A DNA stretch of 64,000 nt from a virus (taxonomy: Duplodnaviria > Caudoviricetes): the IMG/VR virus record IMGVR_UViG_3300021399_000003, positions 64,001 through 128,000 of that record. One strand, 5' to 3'. Both the position numbers and the translations under genes were made by a program. The notes under the pieces were generated by a model. It saw nothing but the letters and a program-made list of their open reading frames with translations. It was not told the origin of the DNA and made no database searches. Every line of letters begins with the position of its first letter. The stretch's first letter is position 1. This document shows positions 8,314 through 61,911 of the stretch, one piece after another.

Positions 8314-8390
8314 TAGCAGGCGTGGCTGGATTTGAACCAGCGAATGCATGGGTCAAAGCCATGTGCCTTAACCACTTGGCTACACGCCTA
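8314..8390 (-). tRNA. tRNA-Gln(TTG)
   Basis: cloverleaf; CATGG-CTTTGAC-CCATG; GTTCAAATC T-loop; ends GCTA. Confidence 0.92.
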
Positions 8391-9108
8391 TAATTTTATT
8401 ATACCATTCTATTAGTTCTTTTTTCTTAGACGGAATATTATTTTTTACACACCATTTTACAACTGCTTTATCAGAAACTCCATATTTTCTGCCTACTGCA
8501 GAAAAACTAGATTCAACAATTTCTTTTGCCAGTTGAATACCTTGCGGGCGTGCAGATATTTTTTCTTGTCTTTCTTGTATTTTTTGTTCTTTTTGACGTT
8601 GTTTTTCGTTTCGAGCAATATCTATTAAAGACGGTCTAATAGGATAGATTAAATAATCTTTTCTCCAAGAAGCTCCACTATTAATTGCTCGAATAGTTCT
8701 TCCAGAAACATTATATTTTGCACCAATAATATCGCTATTATCTAATGTATTTTTTAAATCATTAACAATATTATTAAAAATTTCGTCCGTCATTTTAATT
8801 GCATGAGGAGCATTTTGACCACCTTCTGTTCGATTATATCCATTATTAAAACTGTCATAATAAGAAATCCAATATTTTTCTTTTTCATCTAATTCGGATA
8901 CAAGACATTCTTCTAATATTTCAAAAGAAAAATTATTTAATCCATACAATCTCATATCTTTATATAATGGATTATTATAATTGACTATATTATTACCTAA
9001 ATAATCTGTTCTATGATTTCTCCAACGAGTTTTAATATCTTGTGCTTGACCAATATAAACTAATCCATTTATTAAATTAGTTATTTTATAAATACCACAT
9101 TGTACCAT
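8380..9108 (-). CDS. GIY-YIG homing endonuclease
   Basis: GIYKITN..VYIGQ, R...H, E..WI, GYN..GG. Confidence 0.88.
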   Translation of the reverse strand: MVQCGIYKITNLINGLVYIGQAQDIKTRWRNHRTDYLGNNIVNYNNPLYKDMRLYGLNNFSFEILEECLVSELDEKEKYWISYYDSFNNGYNRTEGGQNAPHAIKMTDEIFNNIVNDLKNTLDNSDIIGAKYNVSGRTIRAINSGASWRKDYLIYPIRPSLIDIARNEKQRQKEQKIQERQEKISARPQGIQLAKEIVESSFSAVGRKYGVSDKAVVKWCVKNNIPSKKKELIEWYNKIIGV

Positions 9109-9626: not shown

Positions 9627-9722
9627 TGGCGACAGGCTTCGGACTTGAACCGAAACATCAGTATATACTAATTACTCTCTGATTAGCAATCAGATGCCTT
9701 ACCAAATTAGGCTTAGCCTGTC
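9627..9722 (-). tRNA. tRNA-Ser(GCT)
   Basis: TCTGA-TTGCTAA-TCAGA; long variable arm; GACAGGC/GCCTGTC-GCCA. Confidence 0.88.
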
Positions 9723-10387
9723 TTATCATTATCTTGCCATTTCCAAATATAGCCATAAGCGATATTCCTTAGTCCTCGTGCGCATTGACTAATATGGTTA
9801 CTACCTGATTCTTTTCCTAAACTTTTTGCAGCAGAATAACAAGAATAAAATTTATTGATTAAATTACCATTTAAATCATATTGACATAAAATATTATAGT
9901 TATTTTTTATTTGTTTTTCATTAAATAAATCATTTTTTAATTTTATTTCTTTGTTCAAAATAGTAGATAAAACATTCTCTGCGGTATAATTTTCAATGAA
10001 AAAATTAACATTTTGATTTTTTTGTATAGGTGTAAAACTTAAAGTGATTTTATTAGAATAATTTTCACATTCTTGAACAGGAATTAAATAACATTGATTA
10101 TTAAAGTAAGTTGCAAATAAATCAATTTCATTACTAGAATAATTATGTTTAATGTTTTCTTTACCTGATGTTGTTAGACTATATAAATTAAATTCAATTC
10201 CAGTATCTTTTTCTTTACAAGTTTTTACTTGTATTTTTAACAATTTCAACTTAATATCTAATATCATATCATATCTGCAATCTTCTCCAATTGGAATGCT
10301 TATATTATATCCTAAAGAAGTAAGATATGCTTGACATAATAATTCTGTTGTGATTCCTTTAATTTTAGTATCTACCATTTTTATCAC
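9713..10387 (-). CDS. PD-(D/E)XK homing endonuclease with NUMOD1-like C-terminus
   Basis: KG..TE, RYDMILD..KIQVKT, EIDLFA, QYDLNG...AYGYIWK. Confidence 0.82.
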   Translation of the reverse strand: MIKMVDTKIKGITTELLCQAYLTSLGYNISIPIGEDCRYDMILDIKLKLLKIQVKTCKEKDTGIEFNLYSLTTSGKENIKHNYSSNEIDLFATYFNNQCYLIPVQECENYSNKITLSFTPIQKNQNVNFFIENYTAENVLSTILNKEIKLKNDLFNEKQIKNNYNILCQYDLNGNLINKFYSCYSAAKSLGKESGSNHISQCARGLRNIAYGYIWKWQDNDKTG

Positions 10388-10462: not shown

Positions 10463-10606
10463 GTGCGCCATCACGGATTTGAACCGTGGACTCCTTGATT
10501 AATGGTGGAGACCGCCAGAATTGCACTGGCACTATCAGTTTGTTCCTTTACTTCAATGCGCTTGCAGTCCCCAAGTCAAGTGCTCTACCAACTGAGCTAA
10601 TGGCGC
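10461..10606 (-). tRNA. tRNA-Lys(TTT) split in the anticodon by a 70-nt tRNA-like insert (10503-10572)
   Basis: exon1 GCGCCATTAGCTCAGTTGGTAGAGCACTTGACTT + exon2 TTAATCAAGGAGTCCACGGTTCAAATCCGTGATGGCGCA gives canonical cloverleaf. Confidence 0.88.
10503..10572 (-). ncRNA. nested tRNA-like element, Ala/tmRNA-TLD-like
   Basis: GGGGACT/GGTCTCC acceptor with G3:U70, A73, CCA; T arm GCCAG-TGCAATT-CTGGC. Confidence 0.75.
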
Positions 10607-12427: not shown

Positions 12428-13012
12428 TTATGGCCACTCGCCTAGAGGCATACCAAGCCCCGCGCGCTCTACATTGGTATTATAAAATACACCTTCAGTA
12501 GCAGGGCCAGTTAGAAGCTCATCAGCAATAATCTCATATAGAGTACTAATAACACCATGACAATCATTTAAATTATCTGCCGCGAATTGTACTACGCAAT
12601 TATTAAATACTACATAAGTAGTTCCAATCCACTGATAGCCTTCTTCAGCAGGACATACAGAATATGCATAAGCAGGATTACCCTTGAAAGCTGTATCAAA
12701 CAATTCAACCTTACTGGTAAAAGCGCGGTTAGAAGGAATACCATCTACATTTACAGCCAACTTAATATTACCAAAAGAAACTTCTGAAGGAAGAATTTGC
12801 TGCAGTGCGGCGACCTTATCACCATTATTACATGCTAGAACAATAGAAGGATTAGAGCCGCCAAAATTACAATTACAAGCAATCTGTGGGTCACCATCAA
12901 ATAGAGCCTCAAATTTACGAATAGCTATAGTCCAAGGTGGTAGAATCTTTAGTCTTACATCACTCATTTTGTTTTCTCCTTTAATATGAATCGTAGAATA
13001 ACAAATAAACAT
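12428..13012 (-). CDS. hypothetical protein
   Basis: ORF; likely start MSDVRLK after AAGGAG. Confidence 0.65.
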   Translation of the reverse strand: MFICYSTIHIKGENKMSDVRLKILPPWTIAIRKFEALFDGDPQIACNCNFGGSNPSIVLACNNGDKVAALQQILPSEVSFGNIKLAVNVDGIPSNRAFTSKVELFDTAFKGNPAYAYSVCPAEEGYQWIGTTYVVFNNCVVQFAADNLNDCHGVISTLYEIIADELLTGPATEGVFYNTNVERAGLGMPLGEWP

Positions 13013-13812: not shown

Positions 13813-14396
13813 ATACCCTATTTAATAAAACCGTTGCGGCCTTCGCCGTACTTGTATTATCCTTCTAACATATTCAACCACGTTGGAGATGAAGGCTGAG
13901 CCACGGGTAGCAATTCCGGACTTCTTCACCCCGTCTTTCGACCAACAACGGAGAGACTGTTTACTCTCAAATTTCACCTAAACCATTCAGCACAATAATA
14001 TCTAATCAAATCTATTAGATTCATTGTCGTTTTGGGCTACTTTTTCTGTGAACCTCGCTTATATCCTATTTCTAGGTTTCAACGACATCAAGCGTCTTGT
14101 TGGCATTTCCAAGGTTTGCGGTGGTAGCCAGCCACATCTAAAACGCCTAACTTGGATTCAGGTCACGCTTTTAACGCTCACCTTCTATTGCGACGCCGCG
14201 AGGAGCCAAGTTTTTGTTAGCGGATAACCAAGCACCTATCCTTAACATTAGGAGTTTCTCCATATCGCTAGTCATTACTGATTTCGCGGCCTTGGCTTGA
14301 AAGTATCCCATCAAGTTTGGGGCTGTTATTCAGATAGTCCAAGCAGAGTGGTTAGCTCTTCTTCACTTGGTTCAACCATTTTATTAAATAGGGTAT
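13813..14396 (-). ncRNA. large structured ncRNA, ROOL-sized candidate
   Basis: 584-nt ORF-free region closed by perfect 18-bp terminal helix; dedicated promoter at 14424-14452. Confidence 0.5.
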
Positions 14397-16084: not shown

Positions 16085-16218
16085 TGGTGCCCCAGACGGG
16101 ACTTGAACCCGTACACCCTCACGGATAGCGGATTTTGGTCGTGGGAAGGAGTGCTGCTCTCCAACAAGCCACTGGGCCCACGTAAGTCCGCTGCGTCTGC
16201 CAATTCCGCCACCAGGGC
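16085..16218 (-). tRNA. tRNA-Leu(TAA) split in the anticodon by a 47-nt minihelix-like insert (16136-16182)
   Basis: GCGGA-CTTA|AAA-TCCGC restored on removal; Leu D loop GGAATTGGCAGAC, long variable arm, ACCA. Confidence 0.88.
16136..16182 (-). ncRNA. nested tRNA minihelix-like element
   Basis: CGTGGG/CCCACG-ACCA; T arm GGAG-AGCAGCA-CTCC. Confidence 0.7.
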
Positions 16219-16938
16219 ATAAAAACCTGATGTAACCCTCACGCAGCTAGATGGTTACTTTGAATAGTACTTTAAGGTATACTGCTAATATATAGGCTAT
16301 CAGGCGTAGCCTTAACAAGTAAATGTGTGGTTGTTCGATATTTGCTCCTTTTATTTCTGAACCACACTAAGAAGCCCTTAAATCGACACTCCTCGAACAG
16401 GGTGCGTCCGCGACCATCACGCCGCTATGCATTGTTAACAATGGGCGATTTTTATCGTTGTTCGCCGCAACTACCTAGGTAATAAGTCTCCTAGTGGTGC
16501 GCTTCTTTGAGAGGCGTAAGGAGAACATTTGCGGTGGCGCCTCACAATTAACCGCAATTTCCCTTATAAAGCCCAGTGGGTGGACTCTGGCGCCGAAGTT
16601 TTATTTTCTAGTTTGTGGTGAACTTCAAACCCTTTATAAACTCCATTAATTGCTTCATACTAGAAAAGTAATTAATTTCATCGTTTCATAATCATCTTGT
16701 GATTATGCCGAATACGCTTTCACGTATTCTAAAACTCCTTGTACGCTTGGTACATGAGATAGCGGTGACGCCCTTCAAAAGTACTGGCCGCAATTTTTCG
16801 TTCAGCGTCTAATCCTGCCACTCATCAAGCTTTTCAGCTTGCTCACGGCGAGTCCAAGAAGAAGAAAATACAGTACGAGAAGTCTTACGCACAACTATCA
16901 TTCCTTTCCTTGTTTCTATAAATATTATATCACAATTT

Positions 16939-20323: not shown

Positions 20324-20965
20324 TTATGTGCTATTTTTATCGTATATCATATATTCCCATTTATATCCGCCAGTAGTCTTACGTTTTCCATTACATACTT
20401 CTTGAATATGATTACTGCGGCAACCAATAGCTTCTGCTGCCTCTCGTGCCGAAGAATACACTTTAATTAATGTACCATCTTTTAATAACTGTTTAACAGG
20501 TTTACTATACAAATGTTGCATAGTTTGATAACCTCTTAATATCCGTTCTTGTGATGGAATATCTTTTAAAGCTTGAGATACTGTTGTATCACAATATCCA
20601 GTAATTTCTTTAATAGATTTTTTACTATATCCCTCATTCCATAAATTAATAATTAATTCATAGCTGGCATAAGGTTTTCCATCGCCGCCAATAGTAGCAT
20701 TATAACCATTAGAAAATGAATTATAACTTTCAATCCAAAAACGTTCTTTTTCATCTAGTTCTTCCAAAGTGCATTCTTCTACTATTTCAATATGAAAATT
20801 TTCAATTCCATATTTATTCATGGCAGAATATAATGGACGATGTTCTTTTGATGACCGTTTTGCGTCTTTACAATGTTCTTTCCAACGACGTTCAATAGTA
20901 AAAGCAGTTTTGCCAATATAAATTTTTCCATTAATATCATTAATAATTTTATAAATGTATGGCAT
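20324..20965 (-). CDS. GIY-YIG homing endonuclease with NUMOD1-like C-terminus
   Basis: YIYKI..YIGKT, RWKEH, GYN..GG, GGYKWEY. Confidence 0.87.
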   Translation of the reverse strand: MPYIYKIINDINGKIYIGKTAFTIERRWKEHCKDAKRSSKEHRPLYSAMNKYGIENFHIEIVEECTLEELDEKERFWIESYNSFSNGYNATIGGDGKPYASYELIINLWNEGYSKKSIKEITGYCDTTVSQALKDIPSQERILRGYQTMQHLYSKPVKQLLKDGTLIKVYSSAREAAEAIGCRSNHIQEVCNGKRKTTGGYKWEYMIYDKNST

Positions 20966-22042: not shown

Positions 22043-22693
22043 TCATACAAACTCTTTCATATCTTCCCATTTAATTTTTACAATTATACGTTCGCCGCGA
22101 CGATTGCGCAATTCAATAGCAGGTCTACATACTACTCCTTCCATTTCACGTTCCTCTTCCGCGATTACAGAATTAGGATGGGTCTTTACATATTCTTCTG
22201 CTGCGTATAAGGAACCAGTGCCTACAATAGGCACAGCCTTAATTCCGAACATTTTTGCAGTTGTTTCTACCCATTCGCGCTCCTGATAGTTATCGCCAAT
22301 AAGCACATCAAAGAGAATAAAATCTACACCGTTGGGAATATACTTTCCACCGCCCTTCTGAATCTTGCGGCCATAACCTTCACCGAAAAGAATAACTTCC
22401 TTTTCGCCAAAAACCTGTTCAAAAATCTGAGCATTAACCTCACCGCCGAACAACTCATTCAAACGAGTAACAAGTTCTGCGGGAATAGCAGCATTATCGG
22501 TGCGACCACCAAAGGTAACAGTATGGCCATCCCAACATACGCGAATGTTAGTGCCATCAACCTTCTCAGTCCAAATCCAGCAATTATCGCTGAGATATTC
22601 TATAGTTGGGTCACGAAATACTCCCGGAAGTAGCTTTTTAGTTCCAGTTGTGTCTCTTTGATAGAGAGTATCAATCTTTTCATACTTTCTCAT
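22043..22693 (-). CDS. ATP-dependent RNA ligase (Rnl2-like)
   Basis: TEKVDGTN motif I, FGEGYG, FDV, EGVV, KIK. Confidence 0.82.
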   Translation of the reverse strand: MRKYEKIDTLYQRDTTGTKKLLPGVFRDPTIEYLSDNCWIWTEKVDGTNIRVCWDGHTVTFGGRTDNAAIPAELVTRLNELFGGEVNAQIFEQVFGEKEVILFGEGYGRKIQKGGGKYIPNGVDFILFDVLIGDNYQEREWVETTAKMFGIKAVPIVGTGSLYAAEEYVKTHPNSVIAEEEREMEGVVCRPAIELRNRRGERIIVKIKWEDMKEFV

Positions 22694-22755
22694 GTGTTTT
22701 GTTCCTTTCTACTTACTATAATAATTATAGCAAAAATTATATAGAAAGTCAAATA

Positions 22756-23109
22756 TTAAATTTCCTTATATCCATAATGAGTAAGAAGTTGCCGCATATT
22801 TGCGACACCAACAGGATTCATGCTATGGATATGAAAACCTACAAGTGGAATTTGATTTTCTACAATATATTTACAAATATCATAACCTGATTTAGCAAGA
22901 GTGTCATCTATTTCATGCCCTTCACCCAAATCATGGTCAAGGTCAATAATTATATTATAAAACTCCTCATTATAATAGTTTAGAAAGAAAATTGCTTCTT
23001 CTACGCTACGGCAAGTAATAGGAATCCATTCCATATGGGTATAGTTACCCAACGTCTTGAAGAAAGTATCATCTTCACGAATATCATCTACATAGATATA
23101 AATATTCAT
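22756..23109 (-). CDS. cyclic-phosphate-processing receiver-domain protein
   Basis: YVDDIR, DLDHDLG, SGYD, IHSMNPVG. Confidence 0.75.
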   Translation of the reverse strand: MNIYIYVDDIREDDTFFKTLGNYTHMEWIPITCRSVEEAIFFLNYYNEEFYNIIIDLDHDLGEGHEIDDTLAKSGYDICKYIVENQIPLVGFHIHSMNPVGVANMRQLLTHYGYKEI

Positions 23110-23179
23110 ATCTCTCACCCTTTCTATAATTATTATACTATAATTTCTATATTTAGTCAAGAAAAAAGAAGATGAACTT

Positions 23180-23965
23180 TCATTCATCTTCTTCTTTCAC
23201 TAAATATTCATCACTAAATAACATTTCAAGAGTAATATTATCGCGTTCCCAGTATGGAATGCGAACGAGAGGAATGTTGTGGGAAAGGGCGTATTGATTT
23301 TTTTCTTTATCGCGTTGCTGCTGCTCTTTTAATCCATTTCGTGCCTGCCATTTGCCCCATGTTTCTTGATAATGTTGAATACCATCAAATTCAATTAAAC
23401 GGATTAATTCATTATTTTTATTATATATTCCAAAGTCATACCAATAAGGATGTTTATTTTTTCCTAGCAAATTATCAAATCGTACTTCAGGTTTAAAATT
23501 GATATTATTTTCTTTTAAAATTTTTGTTATATTAACTGCTCCAACTGATTTTTCTCTTTTTATACACCCACAAGAAATCGTATGTAAACTACGTAAATTA
23601 TTAGCATCTACATCGCATTCATTTCCGCAAGCACATTTACAATGCCATATGGCATTTTGACTTATGTTACTTCCAGTTTTATAAAGAGCAGTTAAATATC
23701 CAAATGTTTGACCAGTAATATCTTTAGTTAATTTATCACCTATAATTTTACTTTTCATACATCCACAACTGGTATCTCTTTGTAAATTACGAAAATTCTT
23801 TACACAATAATTTCCGCAATGTTTACATAAACAATTCCAAAAGGTATGAGTACCTTTGTTGGGAGCTCGTCCTATTATTTTAAAATTCTCATCTTCATAT
23901 CCAGTTCTATCTTTAAGTGTATTACCTGCTACACCATTAAACCACTGTAATTCTTCATATAACAT
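23180..23965 (-). CDS. putative homing endonuclease (Cys-rich repeats + Vsr/DUF559-like nuclease)
   Basis: CxC.CG/SCGC repeats, YDF, IEFDGIQH, RD..K, RIPYW. Confidence 0.7.
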   Translation of the reverse strand: MLYEELQWFNGVAGNTLKDRTGYEDENFKIIGRAPNKGTHTFWNCLCKHCGNYCVKNFRNLQRDTSCGCMKSKIIGDKLTKDITGQTFGYLTALYKTGSNISQNAIWHCKCACGNECDVDANNLRSLHTISCGCIKREKSVGAVNITKILKENNINFKPEVRFDNLLGKNKHPYWYDFGIYNKNNELIRLIEFDGIQHYQETWGKWQARNGLKEQQQRDKEKNQYALSHNIPLVRIPYWERDNITLEMLFSDEYLVKEEDE

Positions 23966-23989
23966 AACATCACCTAAAAGAGCCCGTTC

Positions 23990-25522
23990 TTAATGAATGG
24001 GCTCATATCTCTTACTGTTCAGCTTTTCATACATCATGTCCTCAGCCTTCTTGCCAGACATAATCATTTCAAAGATTACAGGAGAGCAACCAGAAACAGT
24101 AGTTACGTCAGGGCCAACGTCCAAAACTGTATTATTACGTGCGTTTACATTCCAAAAAACAAGAGAAGGCATCTTGTATCCAGAATGGCTCCACTTATCA
24201 CGCATCTTATCCATAAAGGTTTGTACCTGATTGGCACTGTAGCCATTATTTCTATTCCAAGAGGAATATCCCTGTGCGGAATCAATTTCTTGGTCACTGA
24301 TAATGACAATGGTTTCAGGCATATCTGCCTGACGCAGATGATTCCGAACAGCAGTATTCAGCACAAGGTCAAATACAGACTGTAGATTGGTGTTTTCGCA
24401 AAGATTCGTCTTTACGATACGGTCAACCTTGTCGCAGAAGTCCACGCCGCGAGTCTCAACAAACTTCGCCGTGCGGCTGAAGCTGATGTAAGAGTTTGCG
24501 AAAGGTCCCTTATTACGCTCTGCGGCATAAAGAGCAAGAGAGACTGCGACATCAATAGGAGCAACGCTACCAGCACCACTCGTCATACTTCCGCTTGTAT
24601 CGGCGACAACAAGGGCATTCAGGGACATGCCATGGAAGTAATCAGTTAGATTCTCCCAATACTTGTTAATCATCAGGCGGTCGGTATTGTCAAGGGCAAT
24701 ATTACTGCCACGGCCATACCAGCTATAGTCCGAACCCATAAGCTTAATGGCCTTAGCAACCACATCATAAGGATATAGTGCGGCTGCATTAACCTTGGTA
24801 GAGGTATCCTTGGCAAACGCTTCATACTTCGCCTTGATTAGATCACGACGAGCAAAAGCGTTCTTATAAATCAGGCCAGCACGAGAAGGAATCTTGTCAA
24901 ATTCAATCTCATTCCAGCGATTTGTGGACATAAGGCGCTCCAGTACACGAATACGCTCACGAAGGTTAGAAAGCAGTACACGATACTGACGAGAGGTTAG
25001 ACCCATAGTATGGGCAGTTAGACGTCCATAACGCTTAGTCTTGGCAGAAGAAGCGTTCTCGGAAGCTGCCCACTTACCAGCAAGGGAAATAGCACCCTTG
25101 GTCTTGTAGTCAAGGGCAAGCTGCTTACCAAGAGCATATAGAGCCTCATGCTCACAGGAAGTCCCTACGAGAGCATATAGGTCGTCCCAGCGGCCATACT
25201 CAGCAATCTGGTCAAGATTGCGAAGTACAGCATCACGATCTACATCAGCAAGCCAATGTAGGCATACACGGAAAAATCTTCTTTCCCCTTGGCCGCCGCG
25301 CACGTCCCGCTCGTAGAATAGGCACTTTAGGGCATATACAGGGTTCTCCTGATAGGCTTCCTTAAAAAGCAGAATACAATCACTTTCGGTGCGCTGACGA
25401 TAAGCTGCGCCGAAAGAGAAGAGGTCATATAGCTTAGAGCTAGTAGTGGTTCGCGCAACAGCATGATTTTCGGTATACTTATAAGTATTTTGAGAAGCCA
25501 TAGCATTGTAAAGACGATTCAT
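23990..25522 (-). CDS. DUF2828 / Ro60(TROVE)-like protein with vWA domain
   Basis: RDVRGGQGER, YGRWDDL, MIDAS DTSGSM, ISDQE, FWNV. Confidence 0.8.
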   Translation of the reverse strand: MNRLYNAMASQNTYKYTENHAVARTTTSSKLYDLFSFGAAYRQRTESDCILLFKEAYQENPVYALKCLFYERDVRGGQGERRFFRVCLHWLADVDRDAVLRNLDQIAEYGRWDDLYALVGTSCEHEALYALGKQLALDYKTKGAISLAGKWAASENASSAKTKRYGRLTAHTMGLTSRQYRVLLSNLRERIRVLERLMSTNRWNEIEFDKIPSRAGLIYKNAFARRDLIKAKYEAFAKDTSTKVNAAALYPYDVVAKAIKLMGSDYSWYGRGSNIALDNTDRLMINKYWENLTDYFHGMSLNALVVADTSGSMTSGAGSVAPIDVAVSLALYAAERNKGPFANSYISFSRTAKFVETRGVDFCDKVDRIVKTNLCENTNLQSVFDLVLNTAVRNHLRQADMPETIVIISDQEIDSAQGYSSWNRNNGYSANQVQTFMDKMRDKWSHSGYKMPSLVFWNVNARNNTVLDVGPDVTTVSGCSPVIFEMIMSGKKAEDMMYEKLNSKRYEPIH

Positions 25523-27250: not shown

Positions 27251-27404
27251 TAGTCGGGAACCTGGGACTCGAACCCAGGACACACGGCTTATTGGTCATG
27301 AAGGATAGATTTGAACTATCATTATCTTCTGCTAGACAGAAGTAGTTTTCCAATTTAACTTACTTCATGAAGGCCGCTGCTCTGACCTACTGAGCTAGTT
27401 CCCG
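27251..27404 (-). tRNA. tRNA-Ile(TAT) split in the anticodon by a 77-nt full tRNA (27293-27369)
   Basis: GCGGC-CTT|ATAA-GCCGT restored on removal; canonical D and T arms. Confidence 0.87.
27293..27369 (-). tRNA. nested cloverleaf with CTA (amber) anticodon
   Basis: CATGAAG/CTTCATG-ACCA; D arm AGTT/AACT; CTTCT-GTCTAGC-AGAAG; GATAG-TTCAAAT-CTATC. Confidence 0.72.
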
Positions 27405-27815
27405 ATAAATCTCGCGGCTTCTTCTCCTATTGGCATCTTCCGGGCCTCAATCCATCCGAGCCGCCACTTGATTCCACCGCGAATGTCGTTATGAAGGAGC
27501 AAACACTCGCGTTGTGTATACTCCAAGAAATATTTATGTATCATTTGCTCTTATTGGTAGATACTAGACCTCACCGCCTATTTTTCACGCACGGATTCGT
27601 GGCCACCACTAACGAGGACGACTTCCGCTGAATCAAATTATCACGGCCGACCCAGATACCGGGCAACCTCTTGTACTATTCCGGACTAGCTCTCGGTGCA
27701 AGCTCACCGGCATTCTATTCAGAGAATCATATTGTCGCGTTTGCCGTTTCAACAATATTAGCTATATCTGCTTATTTCTTTTGTTCGCGATACTGGCAGA
27801 AATAAGAACAGCCAT

Positions 27816-61026: not shown

Positions 61027-61911
61027 CTAATGCGCGGCTTCATCATATTGATGAAGTTCCACTACCTCCTTCCAAAGTTTTTCACCCATACGAGAACGCC
61101 AAGTATCCTGACACTTCTGGTCAGTATAGGGTATCATATGGTATGCTACAAGTTGTGCTACGTGAGCATTATACCCCATAGTAAGAGCCATATAACAAGA
61201 TACATTTGCATGATTAGGATAATGAAGTTCCCTGTAATCATCTTTTCCCCATCTGGTAGCAGTCCAAACCTTGCCATAATCATGAATATAGGCTGCGCGC
61301 ACAATATTGGCATTGGATAGCCCCAACAGCGCTATGTCTCCGCAAGCATGGCAATGCTCCTGTAGTGTAAGAGAATGATGGCTATTGCCCTGTTCTCCAT
61401 ATTCTTTTACAAGATGAGCATAAGAACGACGATAATAATCCCTATCATATTCTGGCGCGTAATCATACCGGATAAGAACCTTATTCCATCCTTCGCCTTC
61501 GCACGGCATCTCAAATTGCCGCAGCATGCGGTCAATAACATACGAAGGGACTACTCGTTCACGAGCACCATTGCGCTCATGGCATACATCAATAGGAGTA
61601 GCCATGACTACACAATAATAATGAATATCAGGGAACATCTTCTTCAAAGACTTCACGAGATTCATACGACGACGAGAAGAGAGATTAGTAGCATCATAGA
61701 AAACAGTATGATTAGTTTCTAACGCAGCGCTAGTGCGCTGGAACATAATGTTAAAAATGCGAGCGTTGTCTTCTTGGACCGAAGCATCTCCATATAATTC
61801 TTCTCTAATAGAGTCACTAGATACAATTACATCATAGGGCTTTGCCTTTTTGCGTGCCCAATAACTTTTCCCACTGCCAGGAAGACCACAAAGCATGTAA
61901 AAAATAGTCAT
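61027..61911 (-). CDS. polynucleotide kinase (AAA_33) + HD domain
   Basis: GLPGSGKS, SSDSIR, DATNL, RN..RER, HDYGK. Confidence 0.85.
   Translation of the reverse strand: MTIFYMLCGLPGSGKSYWARKKAKPYDVIVSSDSIREELYGDASVQEDNARIFNIMFQRTSAALETNHTVFYDATNLSSRRRMNLVKSLKKMFPDIHYYCVVMATPIDVCHERNGARERVVPSYVIDRMLRQFEMPCEGEGWNKVLIRYDYAPEYDRDYYRRSYAHLVKEYGEQGNSHHSLTLQEHCHACGDIALLGLSNANIVRAAYIHDYGKVWTATRWGKDDYRELHYPNHANVSCYMALTMGYNAHVAQLVAYHMIPYTDQKCQDTWRSRMGEKLWKEVVELHQYDEAAH

Follow-up and report, generated by a model that had tools for sequence, protein, structure and literature searches.

A 77-nt element on the minus strand of the 64,000-nt stretch of phage DNA analysed here (the window) is best described as a complete-cloverleaf member of a little-described class of tRNA-shaped introns. 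We consider it probable that this element is an optional intron, itself probably mobile, lying in the anticodon of a functional tRNA-Ile(UAU), which it would leave by the excision route proposed below. The property essential to the insert is best explained as its likeness to a tRNA, from nucleotide 1 to CCA. Its CUA triplet is more likely a passenger, or a harmless residue of an origin as a suppressor in recoded relatives, than the carrier of a needed function in this phage.

The window is the middle part of a complete phage genome of 169,459 bp (35.7% GC, with direct terminal repeats) and holds all tRNA genes of the phage, on its minus strand, as well as one ROOL and one drum RNA. The tRNA cluster also contains free-standing endonuclease genes of the GIY-YIG, HNH and PD-(D/E)XK types. 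ARAGORN in standard mode reported 13 tRNAs in the window, among them the one at 27293-27369, which it labelled 'tRNA-Pyl (cta)'. Rfam gave three additional tRNA matches of 131-151 nt that span the full model, that is, tRNA genes with a large insert. The nested gene belongs to a unit flanked by a promoter-like site (28096-28068) and a terminator-like site (26858-26833), which comprises a tRNA-Trp gene, a 410-nt spacer, the nested tRNA-Ile gene and two small membrane ORFs. No match was obtained for the upstream spacer in Rfam, or for the region in BLAST searches of GenBank phages in near and distant modes. Relatives were taken from IMG/VR and ENA, and 79 related loci were recruited through the neighbouring gene for a Ro60/TROVE-like protein. 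The features discussed below are collected in the table.

Table. Location of the nested tRNA gene, the other interrupted tRNA genes and the RNA-processing genes (window positions unless marked otherwise)
Feature	Position	Strand	Evidence
Outer tRNA-Ile(UAU), 5' exon: acceptor 5' strand, D arm, anticodon stem 5' strand, C32 U33 U34	27370..27404	-	Rfam
Insert, a tRNA-shaped intron of type A: full cloverleaf of 77 nt, CCA encoded after A73	27293..27369	-	ARAGORN, Rfam, R1 model
CUA triplet, positions 34-36 of the inner tRNA, in the loop G32-U33-C-U-A-G37-C38	27333..27335	-	
Outer tRNA-Ile(UAU), 3' exon: A35 U36 A37 A38, anticodon stem 3' strand, variable loop, T arm, acceptor 3' strand, A73; no encoded CCA	27254..27292	-	
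tRNA-Lys(UUU) with a 70-nt insert (10572..10503) after U34	10464..10606	-	Rfam 58 bits, whole model
tRNA-Leu(UAA) interrupted by a minihelix of 47 nt (16182..16136) with ACCA at its end	16088..16218	-	Rfam 40.6 bits
Rnl2-type RNA ligase, candidate exon sealer	22043..22693	-	PF09414 60.5 bits; phrog_548
cREC_REC (cyclic-phosphate processing receiver domain), RNA-repair gene cluster	22756..23187	-	PF20274 60.7 bits
Ro60/TROVE-like RNA-binding protein (DUF2828 + DUF7788)	23990..25522	-	Pfam; phrog_850 E 1.7e-118
Polynucleotide-kinase-like P-loop kinase fused to HD, candidate end-healer	61027..61911	-	PF13671 76 bits; phrog_505
T4 Rnl1-family ligase	genome 130833-131975		

A preliminary description had placed a 77-nt cloverleaf with the loop GTCTAGC inside another tRNA gene, and ARAGORN, Rfam and a reading of the sequence confirmed it on the minus strand. 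The inner tRNA (27369..27293) scores 50.1 bits against the Rfam tRNA model (RF00005, E 3.9e-10, gathering score 29) and 56.7 bits against R1, a custom model built from 97 phage tRNAs. It has a 7-bp acceptor stem (CATGAAG/CTTCATG) followed by U8 and A9, a D arm (AGTT...AACT) with G18G19 in its loop, a 5-bp anticodon stem (CTTCT/AGAAG) closed by GTCTAGC, a 5-nt variable loop (ATAAT) and the T arm GATAG-TTCAAAT-CTATC, which contains the GTTCRA motif. Both cloverleaves are intact in the minimum free energy fold of the whole 152-nt precursor (-49 kcal/mol, z = -3.9), and the inner one is genuine rather than a chance match. RNAfold also pairs G32 with C38 and U33 with G37, which turns the anticodon arm into a 7-bp stem with a CUA triloop, so the earlier remark that a G32-C38 pair could shrink the loop holds. 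The element is not a tRNA-Pyl, a label that ARAGORN gives because of the CUA anticodon only. The hallmarks of tRNA-Pyl are a 6-bp anticodon stem, a 3-nt variable loop, a small D loop lacking G18G19 and a single nucleotide between the acceptor and D stems. The U8 A9 spacer, G18G19, the 5-nt variable loop and the TTCAAAT T loop of the inner tRNA reject that identity.

The outer tRNA (27404..27254) matches the whole Rfam tRNA model, positions 1-71, with 50.8 bits. CGGGAAC...GCGGC-CTT precedes the insert and ATAA-GCCGT...GTTCCCG-A follows it. Five insert-free relatives (L001, L002, L003/L007 and L095) read CTTATAA between the same flanks, where the window reads CTT, 77 nt and ATAA. The outer gene is therefore a tRNA-Ile(UAU) split between U34 and A35, and the claim that the cloverleaf is nested inside an Ile tRNA with a UAU anticodon is borne out by these insert-free loops. 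The same relatives make the boundaries exact to the nucleotide: the insert is precisely the inner tRNA, from nucleotide 1 to CCA. When the exons are joined in silico, the 7-nt loop CUUAUAA is restored and ARAGORN calls Ile(tat). When the window is compared with L005 and L011, which represent two other diverged lineages with inserts, the outer acceptor, anticodon and T stems show compensating substitutions. This tRNA is the only one that the phage encodes for ATA, which accounts for 30% of its Ile codons (24.4 per 1000), and the codons of the other interrupted tRNAs are also heavily used (TTA 35.5 and AAA 49.2 per 1000). Since the helices of the outer tRNA are maintained and the interrupted tRNAs read codons in high demand, we argue that the inserts are removed precisely.

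Inserts with the CUA loop (type A) occur in four sequence variants, namely that of the window, one shared by L005, L094 and L096, one shared by L011 and L086, and that of L088; one metagenome scan contributed one type A variant. Their sequences agree to at least 94%. All have the same loop GTCTAGC, T arm and variable loop, and variation is seen at position 26 and in the D loop; at pair 1:72, C:G is replaced by G:C, and pair 30:40 is C:G, U:A or U.G. A 74-nt insert (type B) occupies the same site in L004 and L009, whose flanks are nearly identical to those of the window, and in L013. It shares its ends with type A (CACGAAGTA... and ...GGTTCAAGTCC..CCTTCGTGACCA), with covariation at pair 3:70, so that the covarying pairs of the insert are 1:72, 3:70 and 30:40. 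The middle of type B folds into a 6-bp hairpin, whose 6-nt loop is CACCAC in some copies and AATTAC in others and cannot be an anticodon loop. Comparison of the anticodon among homologues, proposed in the preliminary description, thus gave a divided answer: it is fixed in the close homologues of type A, and absent and variable in the more distant ones of type B.

The site carries no insert in L003 and L007. In a TAG-recoded lineage the insert is present in L094 and L096 and absent from their sister L095, which has the same tRNA-Ile. On these sequence comparisons, the insert is optional and dispensable in standard-code and TAG-recoded phages alike, and it is probably horizontally mobile. The window and L005 differ at 4 of the 77 insert positions and at 13 of the 74 exon positions (Fisher p = 0.02); the better conservation of the insert fits either its horizontal movement or a stronger constraint on it. 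A free-standing homologue of the inner tRNA was not found among the 519 tRNAs in related loci, where the nearest scores 18 against 77 for self, and a scan of 185,579 prokaryote genomes returned only unrelated tRNAs sharing the T arm. A 9-nt direct repeat at both junctions (CCTTCATGA) was considered as a target-site duplication and rejected, as it stems from the palindromic CATG of the acceptor stem; it is inexact in type B inserts and absent from other inserts. The earlier suggestion of a retired tRNA reused as an intron comes close to the evidence, given the fit to an intron class and the existence of near-identical phages with a non-decoding homologue or with no insert.

Three tRNA-shaped, CCA-ended inserts are present in the 169-kb phage, in tRNA-Ile(UAU), tRNA-Lys(UUU) and tRNA-Leu(UAA), each with an acceptor helix first and ACCA last. 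The Lys insert consists of an acceptor helix (GGGGACT/GGTCTCC), a T-arm-like hairpin and the ACCA end; the Leu(UAA) insert is also found in L009. Across the phage group, we counted at least nine independent inserts, located after nucleotide 34-36 of interrupted (host) tRNAs of the Ile, Lys, Leu, Asn and Glu types. Their sequences are mutually unrelated and their layout is constant: a 6-7 bp acceptor-like helix opens at the 5' junction, mostly there is a T-arm-like hairpin with a 7-nt loop stacked on this helix, and nearly all close at the 3' junction with a single-stranded NCCA. The 77-nt insert shares the sequence and structural features of the class, as it lies in an anticodon loop, its exact removal restores a 7-nt loop and it runs from an acceptor helix, through a T arm, to a single-stranded NCCA. 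A second class of inserts, which carry an ACAGCAA motif and are not tRNA-shaped, is found in tRNA anticodon loops of more distant relatives. The inner anticodon arm has a 10-mer (TTCTGTCTAG) in common with ACAGCAA-type inserts, which is probably a coincidence, as about 0.8 occurrences of the 8-mer CTGTCTAG would be expected in the window.

Bacteria and their phages are not known to remove tRNA introns other than by self-splicing ribozymes. Group I introns of bacterial and plastid tRNAs, such as the one that splits tRNA-Leu(UAA) between positions 34 and 35, resemble the present insert in position, optional presence and likely mobility, but they are self-splicing ribozymes that measure about 200 nt or longer, have a conserved core (P3-P9) and end in G. 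The length of 77 nt, the final A, the tRNA fold and the lack of any Rfam match other than tRNA reject a group I intron here. Archaeal and eukaryal tRNA introns are likewise short, lie in the anticodon loop and depend on proteins, a splicing endonuclease and a ligase, for removal and joining; they differ in having a bulge-helix-bulge and in lying at position 37/38, whereas the insert lies at 34/35 in a bacterial phage. In a bulge-helix-bulge, a helix of 4 bp lies between two bulges of 3 nt each, which hold the splice sites. The inner acceptor helix is bordered by 3 unpaired nucleotides on its 5' side and 8 on its 3' side, which excludes this motif.

The only remark that we found in the literature on a mechanism or a name for tRNA-shaped introns concerns Lak megaphages, whose tRNA introns were called 'enigmatic' and one of whose inserts 'itself may encode a tRNA' (Devoto et al. 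2019, Nat Microbiol, PMC6784885, Fig. 4, Table S6). As in our phages, the Lak inserts lie in anticodon loops of phage tRNAs, are highly conserved, and alleles with and without them differ exactly by the insert (PMC6784885). They differ in being longer (79-141 nt), in having a leading hairpin before the tRNA-like part and in ending in ...GCA or ...CTA rather than CCA; in the 'Thr(TGT)' case the inner loop is not a clean anticodon loop (PMC6784885). Neither a mechanism nor an amber anticodon was reported for them (PMC6784885), whereas the insert described here is solely a complete cloverleaf with CUA and CCA. A search of the literature for published evidence that such inserts are removed and their exons joined found none.

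TAG is an ordinary stop in the genome studied here, which is not recoded. It ends 25 of about 240 ORFs (~10%), with read-through tails of 0-31 codons; neither long ORFs joined by TAG on a coding strand nor TAG-interrupted genes were found in this genome, and reading TAG as sense increases ORF coverage no more than reading TGA as sense. An excess of back-up stops after TAG, a signature of suppression, was not significant (p 0.12-0.17). Two earlier observations, that TAG leaves long genes unfragmented and that several ORFs end in it without genome-wide recoding, therefore stand. The wider phage family includes TAG-recoded members, and the type A insert was found in one such lineage. Most genes of L005, L094 and L096 contain in-frame TAG, six of them in the case of a radical SAM gene (phrog_1802, E 1e-53), and no gene among those listed for L094 and L095 ends in TAG. 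In addition to the nested tRNA, L005, L094 and L096 encode a canonical long-arm CUA tRNA; L095 is equally recoded and has the canonical suppressor, but not the insert. One TAG site in an L094 gene corresponds to a normal Gln codon in the orthologue of this genome, and Gln is the commonest match of TAG when the recoded relatives are aligned to this genome, a result that is not robust.

The inner loop GUCUAGC (G32, G37, C38) stands apart from the CTCTAAA or CTCTAAC found in 13 of 13 free-standing CUA tRNAs of the relatives, so that three of its four flanking positions differ from those of the genuine suppressors encoded by related phages. It also departs from the context of an efficient decoder (Y32, U33, A37, A38). 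Among the 434 distinct tRNAs of these phages, G32 occurs in eight, four of which are this insert, and a G:C or C:G pair at 32:38 is otherwise seen only in two aberrant tRNA-Pro; G37 after A36 is found in 10 other tRNAs. Changes at positions 32, 37 and 38 of the 'extended anticodon' strongly reduce amber suppression. Suppressor tRNAs of TAG-recoded phages (crAss-like and Lak phages; suppressors linked to theta ribozymes, PMC10879173) are phage-encoded CUA tRNAs as well. They are free-standing, with the loops CUCUAAA or CUCUAAC, in genomes full of in-frame TAG, whereas the present CUA tRNA is nested, has the loop GUCUAGC and lies in a genome with TAG as stop.

A first alternative, which we judge unlikely, is that the inner tRNA, once excised, is charged with an amino acid and decodes UAG to a biologically useful degree, so that one gene gives both tRNA-Ile and an amber suppressor. 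Such a tRNA would extend some TAG-terminated proteins of the phage or its host, or act in co-infection with TAG-recoded relatives. Its fully canonical core and mature CCA would suit this role, and the same type A insert is found in L005, L094 and L096, whose genes hold many in-frame TAGs. In this phage, however, there are no TAG-interrupted genes, the read-through tails are short and back-up stops are not in excess; the closest relatives have no insert or a non-decoding homologue, and the recoded L095 dispenses with it where a canonical suppressor exists. The constancy of CUA and of the entire loop across four variants, with compensating changes at 30:40 and 1:72, speaks for decoding, although variants this similar (at least 94%) could owe a constant CUA to recent spread. 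G37 following A36 occurs in 10 other tRNAs of these phages. Against decoding, G32:C38 and U33.G37 can close the loop to a triloop.

The preliminary idea of a conditional suppressor released by splicing is accordingly not supported for this phage, given the normal use of TAG as a stop, the lack of any need for read-through, the atypical loop and the dispensability of the insert. The invariant CUA loop, the compensated anticodon stem and the presence of the insert in a phage that reads TAG as sense leave it a small probability. The freed inner RNA would be at most a weak, non-essential amber suppressor in this phage, and a weak or auxiliary role in suppression is possible in the recoded phages. 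We regard it as distinctly unlikely that the insert is a mobile tRNA-shaped intron which brings along an amber suppressor that works and carries it between phages with TAG-recoded and standard codes. If true, the element would modify the genetic code in portable form and could be a stepping stone when codes change; a single gene would give rise to two tRNAs, with splicing by RNase P, a 3' endonuclease and a phage RNA ligase.

In the reading that we prefer, of a tRNA-shaped intron, the nested gene would be transcribed within the unit running from tRNA-Trp through tRNA-Ile to the small ORFs. Bacterial RNase P would cut at the 5' end of the inner acceptor helix, leaving U34 with a 3'-OH, and a second endonucleolytic cut immediately after the inner CCA would expose the 5' end of A35. 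The exon halves, held by the helices of the outer tRNA, would be sealed by a phage RNA ligase of the Rnl1 family or the Rnl2 type, with the kinase/HD enzyme involved where ends need healing. The products would be a mature tRNA-Ile(UAU), reading the abundant AUA codon, and a free inner tRNA whose CUA would have no required decoding job. RNase P is proposed because the conserved features of the class are known recognition elements of the bacterial enzyme, which cleaves acceptor/T-arm minihelices and uses a 3' RCCA and a U at -1. The inserts of the class often have a U at -1, here U34 of the host tRNA.

The weakest step of the proposed route is the second cut, behind the CCA. An encoded CCA blocks many RNase Z enzymes, although some RNase Z cut after CCA, and exonucleolytic trimming of the 3' end would destroy the 3' exon. 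Neither an RNase Z-like protein, a CCA-adding enzyme nor RtcB was found among the proteins encoded by this phage. The constraint on the anticodon arm, with its invariant loop and compensated stem, counts against a pure processing handle, which would not need it.

Four enzymes of the phage are candidates for healing and sealing, namely the Rnl1-family and Rnl2-type ligases, the cREC protein and the kinase-HD protein. For the sealing step, T4 Rnl1 offers a precedent, as it seals breaks in tRNA anticodon loops. In the repair system of phage T4, a break of this kind made by the anticodon nuclease PrrC is likewise sealed by a phage kinase/phosphatase and a ligase (Pnkp and Rnl1); there the break is damage inflicted by the host, whereas here it would be programmed, as part of how the gene is expressed. 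The Rnl2-type ligase is present in four of the four insert-bearing relatives tested, a sample biased by the recruitment of loci via a neighbouring gene, and its gene is adjoined by the cREC gene, near the TROVE-like gene. Rnl1 is present in only one of these four relatives and was not found in the complete 181-kb genome of L013, which has inserts. In the kinase-HD protein, the HD match is weak and phrog_505 corresponds to polynucleotide kinase.

The same intron could also be removed by other chemistry, which we rate as unlikely. A dedicated endonuclease of the phage or the host, for instance the PIN-PhoH protein encoded at 16-1251 or an anticodon-nuclease-like enzyme, would cut both junctions to leave a 2',3'-cyclic phosphate and a 5'-OH, which the kinase/HD enzyme and cREC would heal before an Rnl ligase seals the exons. 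The tRNA shape would then serve folding, stability or a later role of the intron rather than recognition by RNase P. The phage has a full heal-and-seal set, with a cyclic-phosphate-processing domain beside the ligase, and a cut after CCA has no obvious match among known bacterial enzymes. Moreover, the ACAGCAA inserts of relatives occupy the same position without being tRNA-shaped, which implies that a route independent of RNase P exists or is additionally needed. Against this, the conserved acceptor helix, T-arm-like hairpin and NCCA are the determinants by which RNase P and tRNA 3'-end enzymes recognise their substrates, and none of the candidate nucleases shows a link to the inserts. No bacterial machinery is known for introns of this kind, as would suit a dead gene in which the insert disrupted tRNA-Ile and neither RNA functions, but this is very unlikely given the compensating changes that maintain all outer helices in three diverged insert-bearing lineages, the role of this tRNA as the only one for ATA (30% of Ile codons), the presence of such inserts in three high-demand tRNAs of one genome and their nucleotide-exact boundaries.

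Inserts that mimic a tRNA from the first base to CCA imply a protein-dependent route, made up of tRNA end-processing enzymes and an RNA ligase. We know of no demonstration of splicing by this combination for any tRNA. The present case would be its cleanest test substrate, because the insert is purely a perfect tRNA, insert-free alleles exist in nature and the ligases are encoded by the phage. The occurrence of the same CUA element in TAG-recoded and standard-code relatives also bears on how suppressor tRNAs spread, be it before or after a change of code.

These genes also affect annotation. Standard tools return 'tRNA-Pyl/suppressor' and miss tRNA-Ile, tRNA-Lys and tRNA-Leu, which could mislead calls of genetic-code recoding. 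In intron mode, ARAGORN assigns Arg(UCU) to the outer tRNA, Thr(UGU) to the Lys gene and Val(UAC) to the Leu gene. We rejected these isotypes because the insert-free alleles and the ACCA ends show that the junctions it chose are one to two bases off.

The tRNA-Lys(UUU) gene that is interrupted in the window is also interrupted in L002, a locus of a related phage, where the gene (12693-12841, minus strand) holds a different, 73-nt, CCA-ended insert. This insert lies after nucleotide 36, unlike that of the window, and contains GGAAAGCAAGGGCC, which is also found directly downstream of tRNA-Ile in the related loci L001 and L003. The tRNA-Lys insert of the window (10503-10572, minus strand) has an acceptor end composed of G1-G2-G3:U70-G4 and A73-CCA, the minimal alanine identity set, common to tRNA-Ala and tmRNA. 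The insert might be chargeable as a minihelix. More distant relatives carry another kind of short insert, 30-57 nt long and situated within the anticodon loops of tRNA genes. Their shape is not tRNA-like, and most contain the motif ACAGCAA 3' of a hairpin, with a partial motif in a few.

The CUA tRNA nested within tRNA-Ile(UAU) encodes its own CCA, in contrast to the outer tRNA-Ile formed by the exons, in which A73 is followed by CTA (27251-27254, minus strand). The outer gene does encode CCA in three related loci (L004, L009 and L011). A spacer of ~410 nt (27405-27815, minus strand) separates tRNA-Trp from the nested gene; no convincing ORF was found in it and it had no match in Rfam. The block GGATTGAGGCCC..., immediately upstream of tRNA-Ile, is kept in L001, L003, L004 and L086.

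In many relatives of the window's phage, TAG seems to be a sense codon. Their structural, radical SAM and GIY-YIG genes contain in-frame TAG, their ORF coverage rises greatly when TAG is treated as sense, and they carry canonical CUA tRNAs, several of which have a long variable arm. The window's phage follows the standard code, as do its nearest relatives; code usage thus switches within the group.

Free-standing homing-endonuclease genes are scattered through the tRNA cluster of the window, and three are listed in the table together with a ROOL RNA and a drum RNA. The interrupted tRNA-Lys is followed, 77 nt downstream, by the start of the PD-(D/E)XK gene. An RNA-repair-like gene cluster (22043-25522, minus strand) occupies the centre of the tRNA region; it encodes an Rnl2-type ligase, a protein with a cREC cyclic-phosphate-processing domain and a Ro60/TROVE-like protein (DUF2828 + DUF7788), and an HNH homing-endonuclease-like gene is inserted among these genes.

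Features of the window and of related loci (L-numbers)
Feature	Locus	Position	Strand	Detail
GIY-YIG homing endonuclease	window	8380-9108	-	
PD-(D/E)XK+NUMOD1 homing endonuclease	window	9713-10387	-	
ROOL RNA	window	13818-14394	-	298 bits; within tRNA cluster
drum RNA	window	16591-16686	-	60 bits; within tRNA cluster
GIY-YIG homing endonuclease	window	20324-20965	-	
HNH homing-endonuclease-like gene	window	23180-23965		
tRNA gene with 30-57 nt insert	L017	597-726		
tRNA gene with 30-57 nt insert	L020	482-611		
tRNA gene with 30-57 nt insert	L039	4536-4665		
tRNA genes with 30-57 nt inserts	L052	9487-9603, 9676-9804		two genes
tRNA genes with 30-57 nt inserts	L066	9685-9800, 11777-11890		two genes
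tRNA gene with 30-57 nt insert	L075	13853-13987		
Apparent TAG-as-sense relative	L094	1-20339		
Apparent TAG-as-sense relative	L095	1-20339		
Apparent TAG-as-sense relative	L005	558-1856		
Further apparent TAG-as-sense relatives	L024, L026, L041, L039, L023, L017, L034
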